This document shows, piece after piece, positions 1,369 through 16,254 of a DNA stretch of 16,346 nucleotides. The translations under genes and the position numbers were made by a program. Location: IMG/VR virus record IMGVR_UViG_2529292829_000006; one strand, given 5' to 3'. Positions within the stretch are counted from its first letter, which is position 1. Every line of letters begins with the position of its first letter. Source of the stretch: a virus (lineage: Duplodnaviria > Heunggongvirae > Uroviricota > Caudoviricetes). The notes beneath the pieces are model-generated. The model was not told the DNA's origin, did not search any database, and was given only the letters and a program-made list of their open reading frames with translations.

Positions 1369-1444
1369 GCCGATATAGCTCAGTTGGTAGAGCAGCGCAT
1401 TCGTAATGCGAAGGTCGTAGGTTCGACTCCTATTATCGGCACCA
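1369..1444 (+). tRNA. thrW: tRNA-Thr (anticodon CGU), thrW-like; integration target of the downstream element
   Basis: 76-nt sequence GCCGATATAGCTCAGTTGGTAGAGCAGCGCATTCGTAATGCGAAGGTCGTAGGTTCGACTCCTATTATCGGCACCA; acceptor stem GCCGATA/TATCGGC, D-stem GCTC/GAGC, anticodon loop TTCGTAA (CGT), T-loop GGTTCGACTCC, 3' CCA. Confidence 0.9.
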
Positions 1445-1610: not shown

Positions 1611-2825
1611 GTGAAACTCAATGCCCGTCAAATAGACACTGCCAAGCCAAAAGAGAAGGCTTACAAGCTGGCTGATGGTGGTGGTCTGTATCTCTTGGTA
1701 AAACCTAGTGGAGGAAAATATTGGCGCTTCAAGTATCGTGTAGCTGGTAAAGAGAAGCTGTTAGCACTAGGTGTGTATCCTGAAGTTACCTTGGCTGATG
1801 CTCGTGCAAAACGTGAAGAAGCTAAAAGGGGTATCGCTGGGGGTATCGATCCGATGGAAGCGAAACGAGAGGAAAAGATTGCCCGGGAAACGCAGTTAAA
1901 CAACACCTTCAAAGATATTGCCCTTGAGTGGCACAGCAGCAAATTAAAAAAATGGTCTGCTGGTTATGCTTCAGACATCCTCGAAGCCTTCAACAAAGAT
2001 GTGTTCCCTTACATTGGCAAAAAACCAATCGCCGAAATCAAACCACTTGAACTGCTGAATGTGCTGCGGCGCATCGAGGGGCGCGGTGCTACCGAAAAAG
2101 CCAAAAAAGTGAGGCAGCGATGTGGGGAAGTTTTCCGCTATGCAATTGTCACTGGACGTGCTGAGTATAACCCTGCACCGGATCTCACCAGCGCGATGCA
2201 AGGTCATGAATCTAATCATTATCCTTTCCTCACAGCCAAAGAATTACCTGATTTTTTCAAGGCATTGTCCAGTTACTCAGGAAGTGCATTGGTTGTTATG
2301 GCGGCTCGTTTACTGATTATCACCGGTTTGCGGACTGGCGAACTGCGCGGGGCATTATGGGATGAAATCGATCTCAACAAGGCTATCTGGGAGATACCTG
2401 CTTCACGGATGAAAATGCGTCGCCCTCATGTAGTGCCTTTGTCTGAGCAGGCTCTTTCGCTTATTGGGCAGATTAAAGAACTAACTGGCAATTATCCGCT
2501 TATGTTTCCCGGCCGTAATGATCCAAGGAAAACAATGAGCGAGGCTAGCATAAACCAAGTATTTAAACGCATCGGCTATAACGGAAAGGTTACTGGTCAT
2601 GGCTTCCGGCACACTATGAGCACCATTTTGCATGAGCAGGGCTATAACACCGCGTGGATAGAGACACAGCTTGCGCACGTCGATAAAAACTCAATTCGTG
2701 GCACATACAACCATGCGCAATATCTGGATGGGCGGCGGGAAATGCTTCAGTGGTACGCTGATTATATGGATTCGCTCGAGCATGGCGGAAATGTGGTGCA
2801 TGGTGAGTTCGGAAAATGCGGGTGA
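1611..2825 (+). CDS. int: tyrosine-type site-specific integrase, P4-type
   Basis: 404-aa ORF with GTG start and GGAGG 9 nt upstream; N-terminus MKLNARQIDTAKPKEKAYKLADGGGLYLLVKPSGGKYWRFKYR typical of P4-family integrases; catalytic-region motifs LRTGELRG, HGFRHT and C-terminal Tyr region present. Confidence 0.9.
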   Translation: MKLNARQIDTAKPKEKAYKLADGGGLYLLVKPSGGKYWRFKYRVAGKEKLLALGVYPEVTLADARAKREEAKRGIAGGIDPMEAKREEKIARETQLNNTFKDIALEWHSSKLKKWSAGYASDILEAFNKDVFPYIGKKPIAEIKPLELLNVLRRIEGRGATEKAKKVRQRCGEVFRYAIVTGRAEYNPAPDLTSAMQGHESNHYPFLTAKELPDFFKALSSYSGSALVVMAARLLIITGLRTGELRGALWDEIDLNKAIWEIPASRMKMRRPHVVPLSEQALSLIGQIKELTGNYPLMFPGRNDPRKTMSEASINQVFKRIGYNGKVTGHGFRHTMSTILHEQGYNTAWIETQLAHVDKNSIRGTYNHAQYLDGRREMLQWYADYMDSLEHGGNVVHGEFGKCG

Positions 2826-2953
2826 CTGGTTGAGTATACAGTAGTAGACTTTGAGCGACGAAAGAAAAGGCTGTGTCTAGGGTCGCTCCCGAAAATCCGT
2901 ACACCTCGACGGACTGGTACAGCCACTACAGTAGAGGACGCTGAGGTGTGCGT

Positions 2954-3765: not shown

Positions 3766-3945
3766 TACCCTGAGGGTGATTTACTGTTACCCTGAGGGTA
3801 TTTTTTTATCTTCCCCGTCAATTTTACCATCACCCTTAGGGTAGATTTCCTCCAGATTACCATCACCCTTAGGGTAGATTTCCTCCAGATTACCATCACC
3901 CTTAGGGTAGATTTCCTTCCGGTAACCATTAGGCCTGAGGGTATG
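3766..3945. repeat. array of six ACCCT-N-AGGGT palindromes, including three tandem 32-bp repeats (about 3826..3921), upstream of alpA
   Basis: Copies at about 3767, 3789, 3831, 3863, 3895 and a degenerate one at 3932; read directly from sequence. The minus-strand ORF 3711..3929 with repeated WRKSTLRVMVI is a translation artefact of this array. Confidence 0.7.
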
Positions 3946-4011: not shown

Positions 4012-4209
4012 ATGTCAAATACGCTTATTCGTTTAACAGAAGTTCAGCGTAGAACTGGATATAGCAAGGCATGGATTTATCGCCTTATGGGGCAAGGTAA
4101 ATTTCCTGCATCAGTTAAAATTGGCTCGCGAGCTATTGCTTTCGTTGAGAGTGAAATTGACGAGTGGATTAATCAGCGTATTGCGGAATCACGCGGAACA
4201 GCTACCTGA
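4012..4209 (+). CDS. alpA: AlpA-family phage/island transcriptional regulator (HTH)
   Basis: 65-aa protein with RLTEVQRRTGYSKAWIYRLMGQGKFP ... ESEIDEWINQR, the characteristic AlpA (CP4-57 regulatory protein) pattern; GAGG ribosome-binding site upstream. Confidence 0.85.
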   Translation: MSNTLIRLTEVQRRTGYSKAWIYRLMGQGKFPASVKIGSRAIAFVESEIDEWINQRIAESRGTAT

Positions 4210-4286: not shown

Positions 4287-5087
4287 ATGAAATTTCCAAA
4301 AATGCCCGTACAGGGGCGGGGCTTCGTTCGGCCTGAAAACCAGAATCTGCAAAATCTCGGCGAAATTATCCCGATTATTTCCGGCGTTATTGGCGGGAGT
4401 GAAACCAATATTGTTAGTGCCAGAGCGTTACATAAGGCGTTAGGTGTAGGGCGCGTTTTCCGTTCGTGGATCAAGGGGCGCATTGAAGAATACGGCTTCA
4501 CGGAAGGCGTGGATTATGAGGTTGTTGAATATTTGAGCCGACCCGATCCGGTGAGCGCAAAATCTCGCCAGCAAACAGCTCTTGAGTACATCATCACCGT
4601 GAACATGGCGAAAGAACTGGCGATGGTCGAACGTACCGAACAGGGCCGCGCCGTTCGCCAGTACTTTATCAAATGCGAGGAGGAGCTACACAAGGTTGCG
4701 CCTGTTCGTTCCGCAGCGTTACGCCGGGAACTGAAAGCCCGTATCACAGTTGCCAGCTACTTTAAGCCAATGTGTGCCGCGCTGGAGGCGTACCGGGCTG
4801 AACTGGGTAAAAACACACTCCAGCACCACTACACCACGGAAGCGAACATGCTGGCGCGTATCGTGCTGGGTGGCATGACTGCAAAACAGTGGGCACTGGC
4901 GAACGGCATTACAGGCGAACCACGCGACCACATGAGCACGTTGCAGCTTGAGCACCTTTCTTACCTTGAGCAGAGCAATATCACGCTGATTGAGTTAGGC
5001 CAGGACTACCACCAGCGGAAGGCTGAATTAATTCGTCTTTCGCAGCGTTGGTTAGCCCGTCGCATGGAGGAAAACAGCCATGTGTAA
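4287..5087 (+). CDS. phage antirepressor-like protein (AntA / KilA-C-type region)
   Basis: AGGAG 7 nt upstream of ATG; segment NIVSARALHKALGVGRVFRSWIKGRIEEYGFTEGVDYEV resembles antirepressor N-terminal domains, and TALEYIITVNMAKELAMVERTEQGRAVRQYFIKCEE resembles KilA-C/ANT regions. Assigned from memory of family patterns. Confidence 0.65.
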   Translation: MKFPKMPVQGRGFVRPENQNLQNLGEIIPIISGVIGGSETNIVSARALHKALGVGRVFRSWIKGRIEEYGFTEGVDYEVVEYLSRPDPVSAKSRQQTALEYIITVNMAKELAMVERTEQGRAVRQYFIKCEEELHKVAPVRSAALRRELKARITVASYFKPMCAALEAYRAELGKNTLQHHYTTEANMLARIVLGGMTAKQWALANGITGEPRDHMSTLQLEHLSYLEQSNITLIELGQDYHQRKAELIRLSQRWLARRMEENSHV

Positions 5088-5804
5088 CGCTCTGACCGTT
5101 ACAAAAAGAGAAAGCGCCCCGTTGCCGGAGCGCCTTTGTGAACGAATAGCCTACTGCGCCATATTGCTTACTGTCTACGAGGCAGATTATAGCGTTGTGG
5201 TCGCACAGAGTGAAGGCGCTGATCACCGTTACTACAGCACGCCAGAAATGCAGAATATTTTGCTGCAAAATGTCGTTGGTCACACTGTCCGGAAAGCAAA
5301 AAATTTTGCTGGTGGCGCGACTGATGCGATTTTGTCAGGTCGCCAGGTGCTGATCAATCTGATGTCTGATTTCGTTCTGGATAAAACAAAGGCGACCGCA
5401 GAGGGCCGCCAGTGGGAAAGCTACATACTTGAACGCATCGCCAACAATGCCAGATTTGCGGCTGGTGGGCAATGTGTCAGCTTTGCACCAATGACTCTAT
5501 GTTTAACTGAGGGTCATTATGGTGAATATGCTGGCTTGCTGGTGGGCTATTCCTGCTCTTTAACATTGCCATGCCGCGATGTTTTCCAGGTATGCGACCC
5601 CATTTTTGTGCGCCTGTACTCTTTAAGGAATTTCTCAAGGATAAACGCACAGGGCGCGAATCTGTTTGACTCATGCTCGTACGCTATCTTTCTGCGCTGT
5701 CTTTTCCGTGCCGGTGATGGTGTATTGGTTGATTTTTTGTTGGTCATGGCGCAGCCCTGTAAAACGATGCACCGTAGTTCCTCACACCACGGCGCTGGTG
5801 ATGG

Positions 5805-5984
5805 TTACTCCTGTTCTTTGGCCTTGCGGCGCTGGCGGTATTCAACTTCTCGCTTTAATGCTGCTGTTACAAACTGCCCTGTACTTTCACCAGGCATTTT
5901 TACCGCCTCAACATTGTTCATAACTTCATGCGGAACCCTTGCCGCAACTGTTTGTGATTTTGCGTTTACTGCTTTTGTCGCCAT
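5805..5984 (-). CDS. small (59 aa) basic protein, candidate ribbon-helix-helix (Arc-like) transcriptional regulator, divergent from the replication operon
   Basis: Hand translation of the minus strand: MATKAVNAKSQTVAARVPHEVMNNVEAVKMPGESTGQFVTAALKREVEYRQRRKAKEQE; SD AAGGGG 8 nt upstream of ATG; below the ORF-track length cutoff; operator-like palindromes lie immediately upstream. Confidence 0.5.
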   Translation of the reverse strand: MATKAVNAKSQTVAARVPHEVMNNVEAVKMPGESTGQFVTAALKREVEYRQRRKAKEQE

Positions 5985-6029
5985 GTTGTGTACCCCTTAC
6001 AAAAAACAAATGCAGTATGCAGGAAAAAA

Positions 6030-6110
6030 AATAAGTGTTCAACACTTGACGTGTTTAACACCTGGGCTTAAATTGGTGTTCAACACCTTGTTGATGCAAG
6101 GTGCAGAAAC
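6030..6110. promoter_or_regulatory. three copies of the palindrome GTGTT-N-AACAC (6035..6045, 6051..6061, 6076..6086) in the divergent intergenic region; candidate operator/promoter
   Basis: Read directly from sequence; lies between the minus-strand small gene (start 5984) and the plus-strand small-gene chain (start 6184). Confidence 0.5.
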
Positions 6111-6183
6111 GACAACGCCCCGCAGTGGTGGCACACATGCAGGGCGTCTAACCACCAACGATAGCAAGAGTATCGAGGTAGCT

Positions 6184-6387
6184 ATGAGAAATCATACCAC
6201 ACACCCGCAAGGGCGGGACTCGCACAACCTGAATAAATACATCTGGCGTTTTATCGCCCTGAGCACGGCACAACCGCGCGTAATTCACATCGAGGCCACC
6301 AGCGAACAGGAAGCACGCCAGCAATCTCCTGATGGCTGCGTGATGGTATTCGCCGCCCGTATTCGCCAGGAGGTGGAACATGTGTAA
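6184..6387 (+). CDS. small hypothetical protein (67 aa), first gene of a translationally coupled chain
   Basis: ATG at 6184 with GAGG upstream; MRNHTTHPQGRDSHNLNKYIWRFIALSTAQPRVIHIEATSEQEARQQSPDGCVMVFAARIRQEVEHV; stop overlaps the next start (ATGTGTAA). Confidence 0.45.
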   Translation: MRNHTTHPQGRDSHNLNKYIWRFIALSTAQPRVIHIEATSEQEARQQSPDGCVMVFAARIRQEVEHV

Positions 6388-7385: not shown

Positions 7386-7676
7386 ATGAAAAAGAAAAAT
7401 TCTGGCTTTACTGCCAGCGGCCTCTCTCGGCCTGAAATCCGCCCCGGTGATATTTTCCGGGACACCAGACGCGGGGGACGGGTGGTTATTCGTCACGTTA
7501 CGCCAGGCAATATCACCTACCGCCGTGAGGCTTACGAATATGACTGCGTAATGCCGCGCCGTCAGTTTGATCGTGATTTTATTGTGGTGGAAAACAAACA
7601 ACAGGCAGTGGCGAGACGTGCAGCCACGAATATTAAAAAAATCCGGGCAATGTTGGTTGCGGGAGGTAAGAAGTGA
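7386..7676 (+). CDS. small basic hypothetical protein (96 aa)
   Basis: Stop overlaps the GTG start of the primase/helicase gene (GTGA). Confidence 0.55.
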   Translation: MKKKNSGFTASGLSRPEIRPGDIFRDTRRGGRVVIRHVTPGNITYRREAYEYDCVMPRRQFDRDFIVVENKQQAVARRAATNIKKIRAMLVAGGKK

Positions 7677-9478
7677 AAAACGCACCGAGTCTAAAATATC
7701 AGCCGAAGGATAAATTCACTGAGGTAATCATTTTTGCCGGGATGGATGCTTACGCCCATGCTCAACACTGGATTGAAAGTGAAGGACGAAAACACGGCGA
7801 TAACGTGCCTCCTGTTTACCTGGGGCCAAAGCAACTGGCAGACCTGGCGAATATCCGCATTATTGACGAGAAACGCCGTTTTGCGCGTGTCTATATCGCG
7901 GGGGAGATAGAGCCAATCCAGATCAATACTATCGCTGAAAAGCTGGCGCTGGCTGGCGTACAGGAGGCGAAATTATACAAAGGTATCACCGACCAGGAAC
8001 CGGAGAACTGGCGCGACTACCTGCAACGGATCCGCGAACAGGCTGAGCACGGGGAAGTTTCAGTGATGAAATTAGCTACAAAAAATAGTGGTCTACCCAA
8101 GCCTGCATTAAATCAGATGGGAGCCAGCCAGAGAGGGGAAGTGTTACTTGAACATTATGGAGGAGCACTGGCGATAAATGATGATTCTGATGTAGTTCAC
8201 CATTACAACGGAATTGTTTGGGAGCCTGTATCTGATAAGGAACTCCAGCGGTCTATGGCGAAGATTTTTATTGATGCCGAAATTAGTTATTCGCAAAACG
8301 CCATTAAATTTGCCGTAGAGACAATGAAATTGAGTCTACCTGTTATGGGGGGAGCGGACAGAAATCTTATTGGGTTCAGTAACGGTGTTTTTGATATCAG
8401 GACAGGAAATTTTCGGGAACACAACAAAAATGACTGGTTGTTAAATGCCAGTGAATTACCGTTCAGCCCGCCAGAAGAGGGGGAAACGCTGGCAACACAT
8501 GCGCCGAATTTCTGGAAGTGGTTGCGTCGTTCGGTGGCGGATAATGCTCGTAAAGCGGATCGCGTACTGGCGGCATTATTCATGGTACTGGCGAACCGGT
8601 ACGACTGGCAGTTATTCCTTGAGGTAACGGGGCCGGGCGGAAGCGGTAAAAGTGTGATGGCGGAGATTTGTACCATGCTGGCGGGTAAGGCCAATACAGT
8701 ATCGGCGAGCATGAAGGCGCTGGAAGACGCGAGGGAACGAGCGTTAGTGGTGGGATATTCTCTGATTATCATGCCTGACATGACCCGCTACGCAGGTGAT
8801 GGTGCTGGGATTAAGGCCATTACAGGCGGTGACAAGGTGGCTATCGATCCGAAACACAAAGCGCCCTATTCCACGCGCGTTCCTGCGGTAGTGCTGGCAG
8901 TAAACAATTATGCCATGTCATTCAGCGACCGTAGTGGGGGGATCTCGCGTCGACGAGTAATATTTAATTTCTCTGAGGTTGTACCAGAGAACGAACGCGA
9001 TCCGATGCTGGCGAAAAAGATAGAAGGGGAACTGGCAGTAGTGATTCGCCATTTGCTTACACGATTTGCCGACCAGGACGAAGCGAAAAGACTACTTTAT
9101 GAGCAGCAAAAATCAGAAGAAGCACTGTTGATAAAGCGTGAAGGTGATTCGCTGGTGGACTTCTGCGGTTATCTGATGTCGTTGGTTAAATGTGAGGGAA
9201 TGATAGTAGGTAATGCAGAAATAGTGCCATTTAGTCCGAGGCGATATCTGTATCATGCTTATTTGGCTTATATGTCTGCGCATGGTCTGGGAAAACCGGT
9301 ATCACTGACACGCTTTGGTACAGATATGCCAGGGGCAATGGCTGAGTACGGAAAGGAGTACAAGCGGGCTAAATGCACTAAAGGTCCAGATAAAGGGCGA
9401 ACGATCACAAATGTTCTGTTAGATAAAGATGCTGATGGATGGTTACCAGCAACGGCAGGCATTAACGACAGAACATGA
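7673..9478 (+). CDS. phage/plasmid primase-helicase, P4-alpha-family C-terminal domain (island replication initiator)
   Basis: 601 aa; motif LIGFSNGVFDIRTGNFREHNKNDWLLNASELPF (D5-N / P4-family primase C-terminal signature) and P-loop LEVTGPGGSGKS; iteron array immediately downstream. Confidence 0.85.
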   Translation: MKNAPSLKYQPKDKFTEVIIFAGMDAYAHAQHWIESEGRKHGDNVPPVYLGPKQLADLANIRIIDEKRRFARVYIAGEIEPIQINTIAEKLALAGVQEAKLYKGITDQEPENWRDYLQRIREQAEHGEVSVMKLATKNSGLPKPALNQMGASQRGEVLLEHYGGALAINDDSDVVHHYNGIVWEPVSDKELQRSMAKIFIDAEISYSQNAIKFAVETMKLSLPVMGGADRNLIGFSNGVFDIRTGNFREHNKNDWLLNASELPFSPPEEGETLATHAPNFWKWLRRSVADNARKADRVLAALFMVLANRYDWQLFLEVTGPGGSGKSVMAEICTMLAGKANTVSASMKALEDARERALVVGYSLIIMPDMTRYAGDGAGIKAITGGDKVAIDPKHKAPYSTRVPAVVLAVNNYAMSFSDRSGGISRRRVIFNFSEVVPENERDPMLAKKIEGELAVVIRHLLTRFADQDEAKRLLYEQQKSEEALLIKREGDSLVDFCGYLMSLVKCEGMIVGNAEIVPFSPRRYLYHAYLAYMSAHGLGKPVSLTRFGTDMPGAMAEYGKEYKRAKCTKGPDKGRTITNVLLDKDADGWLPATAGINDRT

Positions 9479-9510
9479 TACGAAATTTATAAGTTGAAAC
9501 TTAAAAGTAG

Positions 9511-9843
9511 ACGGTTGGTAGACAGATACACTTAACCCTCTACCAACCATCTACTAATTAATGTTTTGAATTATATAGGTATTTTTAATGTGGTAGAGAG
9601 GTGGACAGTTTATTTTATATTTCTAAACCACGGGGGTATCTAAAAATAGATAGTTATGGGTTCATTTTTAAAATTTTTCTTTTAACTATCTACACTGTCT
9701 ACCATTTAGTAAAAGTCATTAATTATCAATGTATTAATACTGTAGAGAGTTGGTAGACAGTTTGCAGATTGTTTTTTTGTTATGTATTAATAACATTAAA
9801 TAAATCAAACAATTATATCGGTAGACAGTTGGTAGACAGTTGT
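9511..9843. repeat. iteron-type replication origin: at least six copies of (T)GGTAGACAG(TT) in both orientations flanking an AT-rich tract
   Basis: Copies near 9517, 9540 (inverted), 9591, 9690 (inverted), 9750, 9820 and 9831; AT-rich core about 9600..9740; located directly 3' of the primase/helicase gene. Confidence 0.6.
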
Positions 9844-9847
9844 AACG

Positions 9848-10390
9848 ATGGGGCAAAGCATGACTAAGCTGACCATTAACAGAAAACCGAAAGGCATTTA
9901 CGGCACGCCGCAGAAAACGACGCAGGCGGCGCAGGAGCAGGATAAAACCACATCGGCGCATAAAGTGATGCCCGGTAACCAGAAAGCGCAGCAAAAGCCC
10001 ACAGGGGCGACACCGTGGCGGCATATGACCAAACGCCAGCGCAAAAACCGCAGGCGCGTTAACCGCCTCACTGAGTTGTGGCCTGACTTATTCAGCCGGG
10101 AAGCACCGAAGCCGCTTAAGGTGGGGATATTCGACGACCTGATGCAGGATCTCGCCGTCAGGGGGCTGGCATTCGGGCCAGGGGCATTGCGTGCGACGCT
10201 GGCATCTTATGCGCAGTGTCCGCACTATTACCGCGCCTTAATGGCTGGTGGGGTACGCTACGACCTGAAAGGCCAGCCGTGCGGCGAGGTGACACCACAG
10301 GAACAACAGGACGCAGAAACGCGGCTGGTGGCGCTGAATGAGAAGCGCAAACGCCAGCGCCGGGCAGCAAAGGAGACAATAGGCGCATGA
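9848..10390 (+). CDS. ProQ/FinO-family RNA-binding protein
   Basis: Segment RRVNRLTELWPDLFSREAPKPLKVGIFDDLMQDL matches the conserved FinO/ProQ domain pattern; an alternative start at the ATG 9860 is possible. Confidence 0.7.
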   Translation: MGQSMTKLTINRKPKGIYGTPQKTTQAAQEQDKTTSAHKVMPGNQKAQQKPTGATPWRHMTKRQRKNRRRVNRLTELWPDLFSREAPKPLKVGIFDDLMQDLAVRGLAFGPGALRATLASYAQCPHYYRALMAGGVRYDLKGQPCGEVTPQEQQDAETRLVALNEKRKRQRRAAKETIGA

Positions 10391-10632
10391 TTCACGACAG
10401 CAAAGCGGAAGCACTGGAAGCGCGTGGTCTGTACCGGAGAGCGGCGGCGCGGTGGGCTGAGGTCATCATGCTGGCGAATGATGACAAGGCACGGGAACAG
10501 GCGGCAAAACGTCGCGCGGAATGTATCCACAAGGCAGCACGCCCACCAGCAAGGCAGGATAATTTCGGGGGAGATGCGCGAAACCATCAGCCGGGCACAT
10601 GCCGGGATGGGATTACATCAGCCCAATGGTGA
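10387..10632 (+). CDS. PerC-family-like small transcriptional activator
   Basis: N-terminus MIHDSKAEALEARGLYRRAAARWAEVI resembles the PerC/Pch family signature (from memory); start overlaps upstream stop (ATGA). Confidence 0.5.
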   Translation: MIHDSKAEALEARGLYRRAAARWAEVIMLANDDKAREQAAKRRAECIHKAARPPARQDNFGGDARNHQPGTCRDGITSAQW

Positions 10633-13686: not shown

Positions 13687-13905
13687 AAAAAGTGTCAAGT
13701 TGAGCAGCTTGCCAGGTTGACACTTTACACTCTGAACGCGAAAAAGTGTCAACCTCGCTGTAAGCCGCGCCATTACTGGCCTTTCGCCAGATTTACCACG
13801 TCAAAAAGCCGAAAAAATCGCGAAAAGTGTCAAGTTGCCATGCTTAGAAATGCCAGGGGAGGTTAAGTTTTGTTAAGGTTTTTCCCGAAAAAGTGTCAAG
13901 TGTGT
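13687..13905. repeat. array of AAAGTGTCAA(G/C)YTG repeats including an inverted pair (13689..13726); candidate binding/packaging (cos- or pac-like) site
   Basis: Copies at about 13687, 13717 (inverted), 13742, 13823, 13888 and 13897; read directly from sequence. Confidence 0.55.
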
Positions 13906-14285
13906 CAACCCGCGATATACAGATTTATTAAGGTTTTGAGCCAGAAAGAGTTAACCGCGCCGCTTTAGAAAACTTCAGGCACGCATTTGTGAAAGCATCA
14001 AATGAAGTTCTGTCATACTTTGCAAATCATGCAGATGCATCGTTACTGAGCATTTTAAGTTACAGTTGATGCGGACTGTCCACTTTAACCTTTCAAAACG
14101 TTTCGTAGTAGGTACTAACTAGAATGCCAAGAGTCTTTCAGGTTCCGTGATGTTTAGCGTTGGATTTGATATTAAGTGTTTAAATTCAATGTGTTACATT
14201 GTGTTATAAAGTTTATTGCTAACAACTGTAGGGTAGATGCCAAGCGCACGCTAAGCATGTTATAATCATTTCAACTTTCATAATA

Positions 14286-15281
14286 ATGGATACGAGAGTG
14301 GCGACGATAATCAAAAATATAGCAATCAAAGGTCTTTTTAAACGGAAGGACATTGATTGGAGTTTAAAAGATGTGAATGTTTTAGTGGGTAAAAATGGCT
14401 CAGGTAAGAGCACGATAATTCAAAGTGTTTTTGCCCTCTTAAAACAAGAATTAAATGAAAGTTTAAGTAATGCTGCGTTGGCTCAAATAACATTGGCCAA
14501 TGGAGGCACAATTACTCACAAAGTTAATTTTCGCGAAATTGACTCTGTCCAGCTTCTAAACCTACTTAATAACCTTAAGAAAAACAGTATTAAAGGTAAA
14601 TCAAAGGGTAAGGAAATAAAGGAGTTAAATGAACTTATTGAGTTGCTTGAATCGAAAAAAGAAGACACTGAAATTAAAGAGTTCGGGATGGGAACTGTTA
14701 GCGTAAGTGATAATATTAAAAACACTAAGCGAATAAATGTTGAGTTAATATCAACTATCAATATGAGTGCCAATTCCATCTATGAATTCAAAAAAAGTGA
14801 TGGTGAGCGCACCACAATTCTTGATATGGAAATTGCTGGTGAATTAGAAAGGTTAAAGAATACTTTCAAAGTAAGTGAGTCTAAAGGTATTCTCATAAAG
14901 GATAAGTTGGAATCAGCTATAAATAATTTATTTGCTGAATGTAACAAAGTTGTTTCTTTTAGTAATGGTAACATTTCTATTAAGATGAGTGATTCTGGTG
15001 AAGATATTAGGTATAATCTTCTTTCATCAGGTGAACGTCAGTTGTTATATATTCTGATTAAAACAGCTAATACTTCATTGGATGAATCTGTCTTGTTGAT
15101 GGATGAGCCAGAAATATCCTTGCACCTTACGTGGCAAGAAAGATTAATAAGCACCATCAAATCAATTAACGATAATTGTCAGTTAATTATTGTTACTCAT
15201 AGTCCTGCAATATTAATGAAAGGCTGGATGGATTCTTTCGTAGATATAAAAAATATTTCAAAGGAATCTTCTCATGACTGA
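14286..15281 (+). CDS. ABC-type ATPase (AAA_15/AAA_21-like, OLD/AriA-like), first gene of a candidate anti-phage pair
   Basis: Walker A VGKNGSGKST, ABC signature LSSGERQ, Walker B VLLMDEPE, H-loop IIVTHSP; AT-rich; possible TATAAT at about 14261; an alternative GTG start at 14298 is possible. Confidence 0.85.
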   Translation: MDTRVATIIKNIAIKGLFKRKDIDWSLKDVNVLVGKNGSGKSTIIQSVFALLKQELNESLSNAALAQITLANGGTITHKVNFREIDSVQLLNLLNNLKKNSIKGKSKGKEIKELNELIELLESKKEDTEIKEFGMGTVSVSDNIKNTKRINVELISTINMSANSIYEFKKSDGERTTILDMEIAGELERLKNTFKVSESKGILIKDKLESAINNLFAECNKVVSFSNGNISIKMSDSGEDIRYNLLSSGERQLLYILIKTANTSLDESVLLMDEPEISLHLTWQERLISTIKSINDNCQLIIVTHSPAILMKGWMDSFVDIKNISKESSHD

Positions 15282-16254
15282 GTTTGAGGATATTAATTTT
15301 AGCGAAGAATATCTTCAGGTATATTGTATTATGGCTGGACACAATGGCTTTGTCTTTGTTGAAGGTCTAAAAGACATTTCTTTCTGGGAAGGCTTATTAA
15401 ACGATAAAGATAATGATATACGTTTTGATATTTGTAACCCTACCAATAAAGGAACAAAAGGGAAACCAGTATTAAAAAAATTCATGAGCCGAGCAAATCG
15501 ATATGCCATATTTGCAATGGATAGTGATTTTGATTATTTATGCCCTAAAAACAGTACAGACTCAGAGATAATTTGCAGTAACAAGTTTATTTTTCAAACA
15601 TTTGTATATTCAAAAGAGAGCATCGAGTTACACCATGAAGTCCTTGAGTATTGTCTTTCTCAAATAAAGATCGCTACTGAAATTAAATTCGATTTTACAG
15701 CATACATTACAGAGTATTCACGGTTGATCTACCCCGTGCTGAAGAAATTTTTATTGCTTAAACAGCATCAAGTTAGACTTGATGACTCAGTTTTCCATGA
15801 AGCGATTGCTCCTTCTGTGCCACGATTAACGAACCAATTTGTTATCAAAAATGCTGTATTTGAAAGTATGCAGCAATCTAAAGCGGTTATTGAAGAAAAA
15901 CTTGATAACCTTATTCAAGATGAATACGATGCTGATAAATTCTATGAGCAGTTATATGATAAAGGATTGAGAGAAGATAACGCCTATCAATATATCAATG
16001 GTCATTTTTTAGCTGATAGAGTTGTCATGCCTGTCATAAAATCATTGATAGAGCAATTGAATATTAATGAAACTGCCTTAATAGTCAAACAATGCAAAGA
16101 TAAACCAACCTTAATCTCGGAAAGAAAGAGTGAGCTAAAAAATATTCTTGAAACTGATTTGAATATTAATACGCTATTACACTGTTGCAAAGAAAAGTTC
16201 AAAACTCCTTGTGCTATTGCGATCAAAGAAAATGTAGCTCGAGCTTTAGCATGA
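15274..16254 (+). CDS. TOPRIM-like (DUF4435-type) putative nuclease, OLD/AriB-like effector candidate
   Basis: 8-nt overlap with the ATPase gene (ATGACTGA); N-terminal FVFVEGLKD (conserved Glu) and AIFAMDSDFDY (DxD) in TOPRIM-like spacing; AT-rich. Confidence 0.75.
   Translation: MTEFEDINFSEEYLQVYCIMAGHNGFVFVEGLKDISFWEGLLNDKDNDIRFDICNPTNKGTKGKPVLKKFMSRANRYAIFAMDSDFDYLCPKNSTDSEIICSNKFIFQTFVYSKESIELHHEVLEYCLSQIKIATEIKFDFTAYITEYSRLIYPVLKKFLLLKQHQVRLDDSVFHEAIAPSVPRLTNQFVIKNAVFESMQQSKAVIEEKLDNLIQDEYDADKFYEQLYDKGLREDNAYQYINGHFLADRVVMPVIKSLIEQLNINETALIVKQCKDKPTLISERKSELKNILETDLNINTLLHCCKEKFKTPCAIAIKENVARALA

Follow-up and report, generated by a model that had tools for sequence, protein, structure and literature searches.

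The window analyzed here, that is, the whole 16.3-kb stretch of DNA (16,346 nucleotides; IMG/VR record IMGVR_UViG_2529292829_000006), is an Escherichia coli chromosomal island, and the window begins in proA. The island encodes a 601-residue initiator protein ("Pri-Rep"), and the subject of this study is the short gap between the stop codon of the initiator gene and the following gene of the ProQ/FinO family, which an initial annotation had called an iteron-type replication origin. All the island genes from the integrase on are transcribed rightward, as seen in Table 1. The genes int, alpA, and pri-rep run in one direction at a specific attachment site, and the gene order is that of Gram-negative phage-inducible chromosomal islands (PICIs) (Fillol-Salom et al. 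2018, ISME J, PMC6092414). Many complete E. coli genomes contain the 2.9-kb stretch around the gap with 100% identity.

Table 1. Features of the island and of the putative origin region, with positions in the window
Feature	Position	Strand	Remarks
tRNA-Thr(CGT)	1369-1444	+	attachment site
int	1611-2825	+	tyrosine integrase
int-alpA RNA motif	2870-2937	+	between int and the next gene; Rfam RF02996, 45.5 bits (gathering score 35.8)
alpA	4012-4209	+	
AntA-family gene, then Icd-like gene	between alpA and the DUF4222 gene	+	
DUF4222 gene	7386-7676	+	
Initiator gene	7673-9478	+	601 aa; annotated "DNA primase family protein"
Winged-helix origin-binding domain	9143-9448	+	residues 491-592; phmmer, PDB 1KA8 (P4 alpha origin-binding domain), E = 1.1e-18
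Wing hairpin	9365-9421	+	residues 565-583, RAKCTKGPDKGRTITNVLL; proposed iteron-specificity determinant
Whole putative origin region	9479-9847		intergenic gap, 369 bp, 72% A+T
Iteron pair 1-2	9506-9527	+	AGTAGACGGTT GGTAGACAGAT; 11-bp pitch
Iteron pair 3-4	9534-9555	-	GGTAGAGGGTT and AGTAGATGGTT; 11-bp pitch
A+T tract	9556-9589		88% A+T
Iteron pair 5-6	9592-9610	+	GGTAGAGAG and GGTGGACAGTT; 8-bp pitch
Longest A+T tract	9612-9683		72 bp, 76% A+T; holds weak unit 9645-9655
Iteron pair 7-8	9684-9703	-	TGTAGATAGTT and GGTAGACAGTG; 9-bp pitch
A+T tract	9705-9740		36 bp, 83% A+T; between divergent pairs 7-8 and 9-10; IHF-consensus match at 9724
Iteron pair 9-10	9741-9762	+	TGTAGAGAGTT GGTAGACAGTT; 11-bp pitch
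A+T tract	9763-9819		57 bp, 82% A+T; IHF-consensus match at 9803
Iteron pair 11-12	9820-9841	+	GGTAGACAGTT GGTAGACAGTT; perfect tandem, 11-bp pitch, 6 bp short of the next open reading frame
ProQ/FinO-family gene	9848-10390 (RefSeq start = 9860)	+	right boundary of the putative origin; Pfam ProQ, E = 4.9e-23
PerC gene	10387-10632	+	
Several genes of unknown function	right of PerC		
AriA/AriB (PARIS) pair	14286-16254	+	defense pair

The repeat array downstream of the initiator gene

Twelve iteron units of 11 bp, with the consensus GGTAGACAGTT, were found in the gap in both orientations, mostly as tandem pairs one helical turn apart. An exact GGTAGACAG occurs five times in the whole 16.3-kb window (9517+, 9695-, 9752+, 9820+, and 9831+), always inside 9517-9839, and copies with one mismatch lie at 9592+ and 9600+. 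Therefore, the description in the initial annotation of at least six copies in both orientations holds with one mismatch allowed. Copies of the 11-mer GGTAGACAGTT with two to three mismatches (9506+, 9534-, 9545-, 9684-, and 9741+) complete the 12 units, and two further weak iteron-like copies at 9645 (9645-9655) and 9763 were counted beside them. The array was also correctly placed directly 3' of the helicase gene, since the gene ends with its stop codon at 9478 and the iterons start at 9506. The bounds given at first, 9511-9843, were right in position, but a start at 9511 cuts the first iteron (9506-9516) and the full element is 9479-9847.

The repeats are far more frequent than expected by chance. 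In the 369-bp gap, 11 copies of the pentamer core GTAGA/TCTAC were counted, compared to 0.53 expected from the rest of the window. A 16-bp tandem-dimer pattern, GTAGANRGTTGGTAGA, gave six matches with three or fewer mismatches, all in 9507-9836. Shuffled sequences gave 0.48 ± 0.70 matches, and none of 200 shuffles reached six. Of all 300-bp duplexes in the window, 9519-9818 has the lowest stability, ~2.5 standard deviations below the mean. Since the repeats are far above chance and coincide with the least stable duplex, the original observation stands. The very AT-rich tract that had been noted is in fact four tracts of 76-88% A+T flanked by the six iteron pairs, in a gap that is itself 72% A+T, and the longest of them (9612-9683) is a candidate for the site that melts first. 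Pairs 1-2 and 3-4 form a 17-bp inverted repeat, which is 94% complementary with 16 nt between its arms, and 38-nt direct repeats start at 9573, 9725, and 9804 (spacing 152 and 79 bp).

A window-type origin was found in 105 of 5,426 complete E. coli genomes (~2%), and all 108 matching places are chromosomal. The sequence is 99-100% identical in 69 genomes. Among seven window-type copies that are 87-100% identical, the GTAGA cores are better conserved than the rest of the gap, with 6.7% of positions variable compared to 23% (Fisher p = 0.0027). Several differences in relatives bring degenerate units closer to the consensus, such as an A in place of the G at 9603, which changes GGTGGACAG to GGTAGACAG at 9600. 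With exact coordinates, the putative origin could be annotated, or it could serve in a compact initiator-plus-origin replicon.

Several other features were looked for in the gap. A small RNA was considered, given the adjacent ProQ/FinO gene, and rejected, as Rfam found nothing in the gap at gathering thresholds; a permissive scan returned only two chance-level eukaryotic microRNA models (E = 0.7-1). Mechanical open reading frames (ORFs) at 9601-9756 (+) and 9734-10024 (-) were rejected as hidden coding sequences (CDSs), with no CDS or other feature annotated under the origin among the 30 matches listed for the 105 genomes. The two matches to the consensus of integration host factor (IHF), at 9724 and 9803, were discarded since such matches are not interpretable in DNA this rich in A+T. 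No + strand terminator was found between the initiator gene and the repeats, and the origin region holds no GATC sites or oriC-type 13-mers.

Another possible explanation is that the repeats are mainly operators, which, when bound by the initiator or by a different regulator of the island, would control transcription of the ProQ/FinO and PerC genes or act in termination or autoregulation of the operon, replication not being their primary role. The last iteron pair ends only 6 bp before the next ORF, and three weak sigma-70-like matches in the gap have their -35 hexamers inside iteron or iteron-like units. Autoregulation is also common among plasmid initiators that bind iterons. However, the sigma-70-like matches are at chance level (3 compared to 2.1 ± 1.5 in shuffled sequences), which also led to the rejection of a promoter array, and twelve sites over 340 bp with interleaved tracts of 76-88% A+T are the anatomy of an origin and not of an operator. 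The specificity of the repeats covaries with the origin-binding domain of the helicase, as described below, and the array is kept despite different downstream genes, namely SSB in the PICI EcCICFT073 of CFT073 and a capsid gene in the record vB_KppS-Ant. A primary role as operators is thus very unlikely. The last iteron pair may have a regulatory side-role, which is compatible with origin function.

The initiator and its proposed iteron specificity

The initiator consists of an N-terminal 145-aa domain of uncertain function, D5_N, a superfamily 3 (SF3) helicase, and a C-terminal origin-binding domain. Its Pfam matches are D5_N, DUF5906 (the P-loop of the SF3 helicase), and Pox_D5. The initiator shares 49% identity with P4 alpha over residues 146-592, which cover the helicase and the origin-binding domain, and it is of the alpha type in having an SF3 helicase together with a C-terminal winged-helix origin-binding domain. 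In an AlphaFold2 (AF2) model of residues 480-601, with a predicted local distance difference test (pLDDT) score of 69, three helices are followed by a beta-hairpin made of residues 565-583, the wing of the winged helix. From these comparisons, the helicase and origin-binding assignments are well supported.

The initial annotation had called the gene a primase/helicase, and the first half of that name fell away. The N-terminal 145-aa domain has no Pfam match and no profile similarity to the primase part of P4 alpha (hhalign probability 1%), and no P4-type primase domain was found at the N-terminus. The TOPRIM glutamate and the DxD motif are unconserved by eye (IIFAG... and YIAGEIE). The name originates from TIGR01613, a P4-family model that covers the helicase part, and the score of 94 bits is below its cut-off of 108.7 bits. 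The "primase" label is, therefore, not supported by the sequence comparisons and is a legacy name.

Beyond the window, homologues were scanned for in one genome per bacterial species. The scan gave 34 loci with initiators 49-95% identical to that of the window, in ~15 genera of Enterobacterales that include Escherichia, Klebsiella, Raoultella, Kluyvera, Pectobacterium, Serratia, Yersinia, Erwinia, and Pantoea. An A+T-rich iteron array was present in the 450 bp after the stop codon in 33 of the 34 relatives (GC 0.34-0.44), and most of these arrays contain 6-12 copies of the 9-mer GGYRRANRN in both orientations. The exception is L034 from Erwinia rhapontici, which encodes a protein of P4-like length (812 aa) and lacks iterons in the 450 bp that follow the stop codon. 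In this locus (about 1193-1500 and 5506-5956), four copies of GGTGAACA are clustered ~2.8 kb upstream of the gene, an arrangement that resembles the split one of P4.

The iterons of these loci fall into five classes. GGTAGAC was found in the window and six other loci, plus distant CFT073-like alleles, and GGTGAAC, which is the P4 type I iteron TGTTCACC on the other strand, was found in 12 loci. The remaining classes are GGTGGAG (9 loci), GGCGGAC (3 loci), and GGTGGAC (1 locus). From class to class, the iterons largely keep their places and orientations, the typical order being -,-,+,-,-,-,+,+,+,-,+,+ over ~240 bp. Origins of different classes align along their length and have class-specific bases at homologous iterons; therefore, all the iterons of an origin changed together.

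Covariation with the iteron class was examined in a set of 35 proteins. The segment after EYGKEY tracks the class, with a mean identity of 0.65 for the same class compared to 0.38 between classes (maximum 0.54). The helicase does not (0.78 for same-class vs 0.73 for different-class pairs, with different-class pairs reaching 0.99), and neither do the remaining parts of the origin-binding domain. Origins of other iteron classes are paired with helicase domains that share 83-87% identity with that of the window. For instance, the helicases of L004 and L008 are 87% identical to that of the window, yet these loci carry GGTGAAC, whereas L035, at 71%, carries GGTAGAC. The wings found with each class are CTKGPDKGRTITN for GGTAGAC, KTKHGIRSN for GGTGAAC, STKGNMRSN for GGTGGAG, and ATRGRIQSN for GGCGGAC. 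The wing of P4 alpha, KRHTKQGIQTN, groups with the GGTGAAC alleles, and P4 alpha is known to bind TGTTCACC.

Together, these patterns provide good indirect evidence that the initiator reads the repeats through its wing. The ~19-residue beta-hairpin wing could be a swappable reading head that sets iteron specificity in P4-alpha/PICI initiators, and we consider the chances of this to be even. If this is true, replication compatibility groups of enterobacterial satellites would be readable from sequence, and islands that are unrelated but have an iteron in common could activate each other's origins or compete for them. The comparative data make a modest addition to the literature, namely that within one initiator family a short wing segment, which is exchanged without the helicase, appears to determine specificity. 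A group of relatives (L004-L013, L020, L029, L030, and L038) has helicases 74-87% identical to that of the window and carries GGTGAACA, the exact P4 type I iteron, after the stop. One initiator family spans the iteron of P4, which suggests that PICI and P4 replicons are closer than their usual treatment as separate lineages suggests.

Probable origin function and the state of the island

The initial annotation had stated that PICIs place an origin of iterons and AT-rich DNA directly after pri-rep. This is stated for Gram-negative PICIs, where the origin is immediately 3' of the replication gene and iteron sets flank an AT-rich region (PMC6092414). In the same study, a temperature-sensitive plasmid with pri-rep plus ori of EcCICFT073 survived under restrictive temperature, and with rep and ori deletions the plasmid was not maintained, or much less so. 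One of the deletion primers, EcoCFT073-pri-4c, contains GGTAGACAGGGTAGACAG (PMC6092414). The window initiator is 43% identical to the validated Pri-Rep of EcCICFT073 over the full length (E = 6e-173). After the pri-rep stop, CFT073 has 11 GTAGA-core iterons in both orientations, as GGTAGACAG or GGTAGATAG, and the window thus has the same iteron in the same place as the tested origin. Homology to this origin, the comparative data, and the PICI layout support the origin interpretation. We conclude, with a probability of roughly 0.87, that a PICI-type phage satellite integrated at tRNA-Thr has its vegetative replication origin at 9479-9847.

A mechanism can be proposed on this basis. After induction, the rightward operon would express the 601-aa initiator, as in the PICI literature. 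Its C-terminal winged-helix domain would bind the GGTAGACAG iterons, a step for which homology is found and which the covariation and knowledge of P4 alpha suggest, and the beta-hairpin wing (residues 565-583) would read the variable middle of the iteron. The 11-bp tandem pairs and the inverted or divergent pairs (9506-9555; 9684-9762) would concentrate the initiator on one helix face to either side of AT-rich DNA. This would promote assembly of SF3 helicase hexamers, in analogy to P4 alpha and further initiators of the SF3 type. The 76-88% A+T tracts would melt, and the helicase would unwind outward. Because the initiator is without a recognizable primase domain, priming is proposed to be carried out by host DnaG, and host DNA polymerase III would then copy the excised circle.

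Several results weigh against the origin interpretation. The AF2 model of the origin-binding domain is only moderately confident (pLDDT 69). In the seven window-type copies, whole 11-mers are not better conserved than spacers (19% vs 21% variable, p = 0.68). The architecture of the window array (369 bp, ++ -- ++ | -- ++ | ++) is unlike the ~250-bp pattern common among relatives. With only ~60-110 bp between wing codons and iterons, the association of class and wing owes something to linkage, and the covariation could partly be shared ancestry of a linked block. Finally, the position homologous to the window cluster is crr in P4, which is a cis-acting helper and not where P4 replication starts.

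In P4, crr (4291-4590) directly follows alpha on the 3' side. It is made up of two direct repeats of 120 bp, and each of these holds five GGTGAACA iterons, which occur in both orientations. The P4 ori is 4.5 kb from crr, beside an alpA homologue. Since the window cluster matches crr by position and grammar, a second site was looked for. If the cluster were a cis-acting replication enhancer of this type, it would be bound by the initiator, and replication would begin from another iteron site of the island. Besides the position, which is exactly that of crr with its iterons in both orientations inside direct repeats, and the 38-nt direct repeats of the window (from 9573, 9725, and 9804), this explanation could draw on a second cluster 4.1 kb rightward (13688-13910), whose motif, GGTTGACAC, is superficially similar. 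However, no second GGTAGACAG-type cluster was found in the window, and none of the 33 relatives has a second cluster of its own iteron class within 4-kb flanks. Two candidates for a second site were rejected: the TTGACAC cluster at 13688-13910, which travels with the neighboring helix-turn-helix (HTH) gene (L044), and the GGTAGAT repeats upstream of alpA at 3840-3911 (GGGTAGAT). L045, whose initiator and origin are the same, lacks both. Also, the pri-rep plus ori fragment of EcCICFT073 alone supported replication (PMC6092414). The absence of the second repeat families from L045 and the self-sufficiency of the CFT073 fragment favor a single self-contained cluster, unlike the split ori and crr of P4, and make a crr-type enhancer highly improbable.

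The two rejected repeat families were characterized further. At 13688-13910, six copies of TTGACAC(TTTT) in both orientations directly follow a 202-aa ORF (175 aa in RefSeq) with an N-terminal HTH that resembles a small terminase or excisionase. The cluster travels with this gene (L001 and L044) and may be a packaging site or a binding site of the protein encoded by the 202-aa ORF. Upstream of alpA, 3766-3945 has six copies of a palindromic motif, CCCT(G/T)AGGGT, which contains GGGTAGAT; three copies fall within perfect tandem repeats of 33 bp (3824-3929). The array probably serves as a set of operators for the induction switch of the island. The motif is absent from L045, which has the same replicon, and so it is not part of the origin.

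The vegetative origin proposed here could also be an inactive relic, left from a time when the island, since domesticated, was still able to replicate. The copies in some genomes have IS3 or IS1 insertions nearby, and a right attachment repeat was not found, with no repeat of the tRNA end of at least 10 nt in the window tail or at least 12 nt in L001. In contrast, the initiator ORF is intact, as are those of the integrase and alpA, and the near identity in 69 genomes, the conserved GTAGA cores of diverged copies, and the substitutions that bring degenerate iterons nearer the consensus all argue against decay. In addition, the family is located at two tRNA sites: tRNA-Thr beside proA in the window and tRNA-Gly beside actS in L044 and L045. 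A relic is, therefore, extremely unlikely. A 16.5-kb record with the source "induced prophage", vB_KppS-Ant, has a 73%-identical initiator, a GGTGAACA origin, and capsid, portal, and terminase genes. Judged from sequence, the two tRNA sites and this record fit a live satellite rather than a decayed prophage, and with this origin the island is probably a functional phage satellite that replicates itself, and not prophage debris. Current understanding of satellite replication is unchanged by this finding.

The islands at both tRNA sites have a common left block of int, alpA, antA, the Icd-like gene, DUF4222, initiator, origin, ProQ, and PerC. Their right-hand modules differ, with NUDIX and DUF2213 genes vs a "peptidase M41" gene in the tRNA-Gly islands, and a lipoprotein-like gene and PARIS in the window. 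This points to modular recombination right of PerC. The ProQ/FinO RNA-chaperone and PerC regulator genes stay linked to the replicon at the other tRNA site (L044 and L045), and Rfam gave no partner RNA. The PARIS pair, made up of AriA (an ABC-type ATPase, PADLOC E = 2.6e-43) and AriB (E = 3.6e-22), is accessory cargo at the right end. The mechanical ORF at 5080-6387 (435 aa) is probably not a single gene, since family similarity (Icd-like repressor, PHROG 6196) is confined to the final ~90 residues and RefSeq places small opposite-strand genes (YlcI/YnfO) and a short Icd-like CDS there. No lambda/phi80-type cos site, as in EcCICFT073, was found in the window.

Comparison with known replicons

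No usable later work on Gram-negative PICI origins or P4 crr was found in the literature, and origin function has been demonstrated for EcCICFT073 only. The window shares with EcCICFT073 an identical iteron core, GGTAGA(C/T)AG, and an origin right after a fused pri-rep with iteron sets in both orientations flanking AT-rich DNA. The island context is also alike, with int, alpA, DUF4222, pri-rep, and PerC downstream, all rightward. Differences are that the initiators are only 43% identical, with the wing CTKGPDKGRTITN in the window vs KGVTQTN in CFT073, and that the window origin is 369 bp long compared to 288 bp and has another iteron order. The window carries ProQ/FinO and PARIS genes and not SSB and capsid-type genes, and its site, tRNA-Thr, is absent from the E. 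coli attachment sites listed for PICIs in PMC6092414.

The resemblance to P4 lies in the homologous helicase and origin-binding domains (49% identity; PDB 1KA8, E = 1.1e-18) and in the cluster immediately 3' of an alpha-type gene, with short iterons in both orientations within direct repeats. Sister alleles with helicases 83-87% identical to that of the window use the P4 iteron GGTGAACA. In contrast, the window has a single iteron cluster, whereas P4 needs both ori and crr, 4.5 kb apart, and the window iteron is GGTAGACAG and not the type I iteron TGTTCACC. The ~325-aa primase part of alpha is replaced in the window by an unrelated 145-aa domain, and there is no talpha-like terminator between the initiator gene and the repeats. 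The P4 hallmark genes sid, psu, delta, and epsilon had no match among the ORFs scanned with Pfam or PHROGs, and the P4 CI RNA was not found, as Rfam detects only tRNA and the int-alpA motif in the window.

The origins of Staphylococcus aureus pathogenicity islands (SaPIs) reportedly lie 3' of rep with two iteron sets flanking an AT-rich melting region, and the match between initiator and iteron is said to be allele-specific. The window follows the same logic of an ori 3' of rep, iterons around AT-rich DNA, and allele-specific pairing, but lineage and iteron sequences differ, and SaPI Rep resembles the window initiator only in the helicase core (PDB 7OLA, E = 3e-8, residues 232-434). Iteron plasmids such as pPS10, RK2, F, and R6K likewise have repeated initiator sites beside an AT-rich unwinding element and a winged helix that reads the iterons. 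However, plasmid Rep is not a helicase and recruits host DnaB via DnaA, whereas the window initiator is an SF3 helicase. Plasmid iterons are usually ~17-22 bp and direct, compared to 9-11 bp in both orientations in the window, and no DnaA box was found, as TTWTNCACA has no match in 9401-9900. Compared to these systems, the origin is a Gram-negative PICI origin of the P4-alpha family, of a kind already known, with a somewhat expanded architecture.

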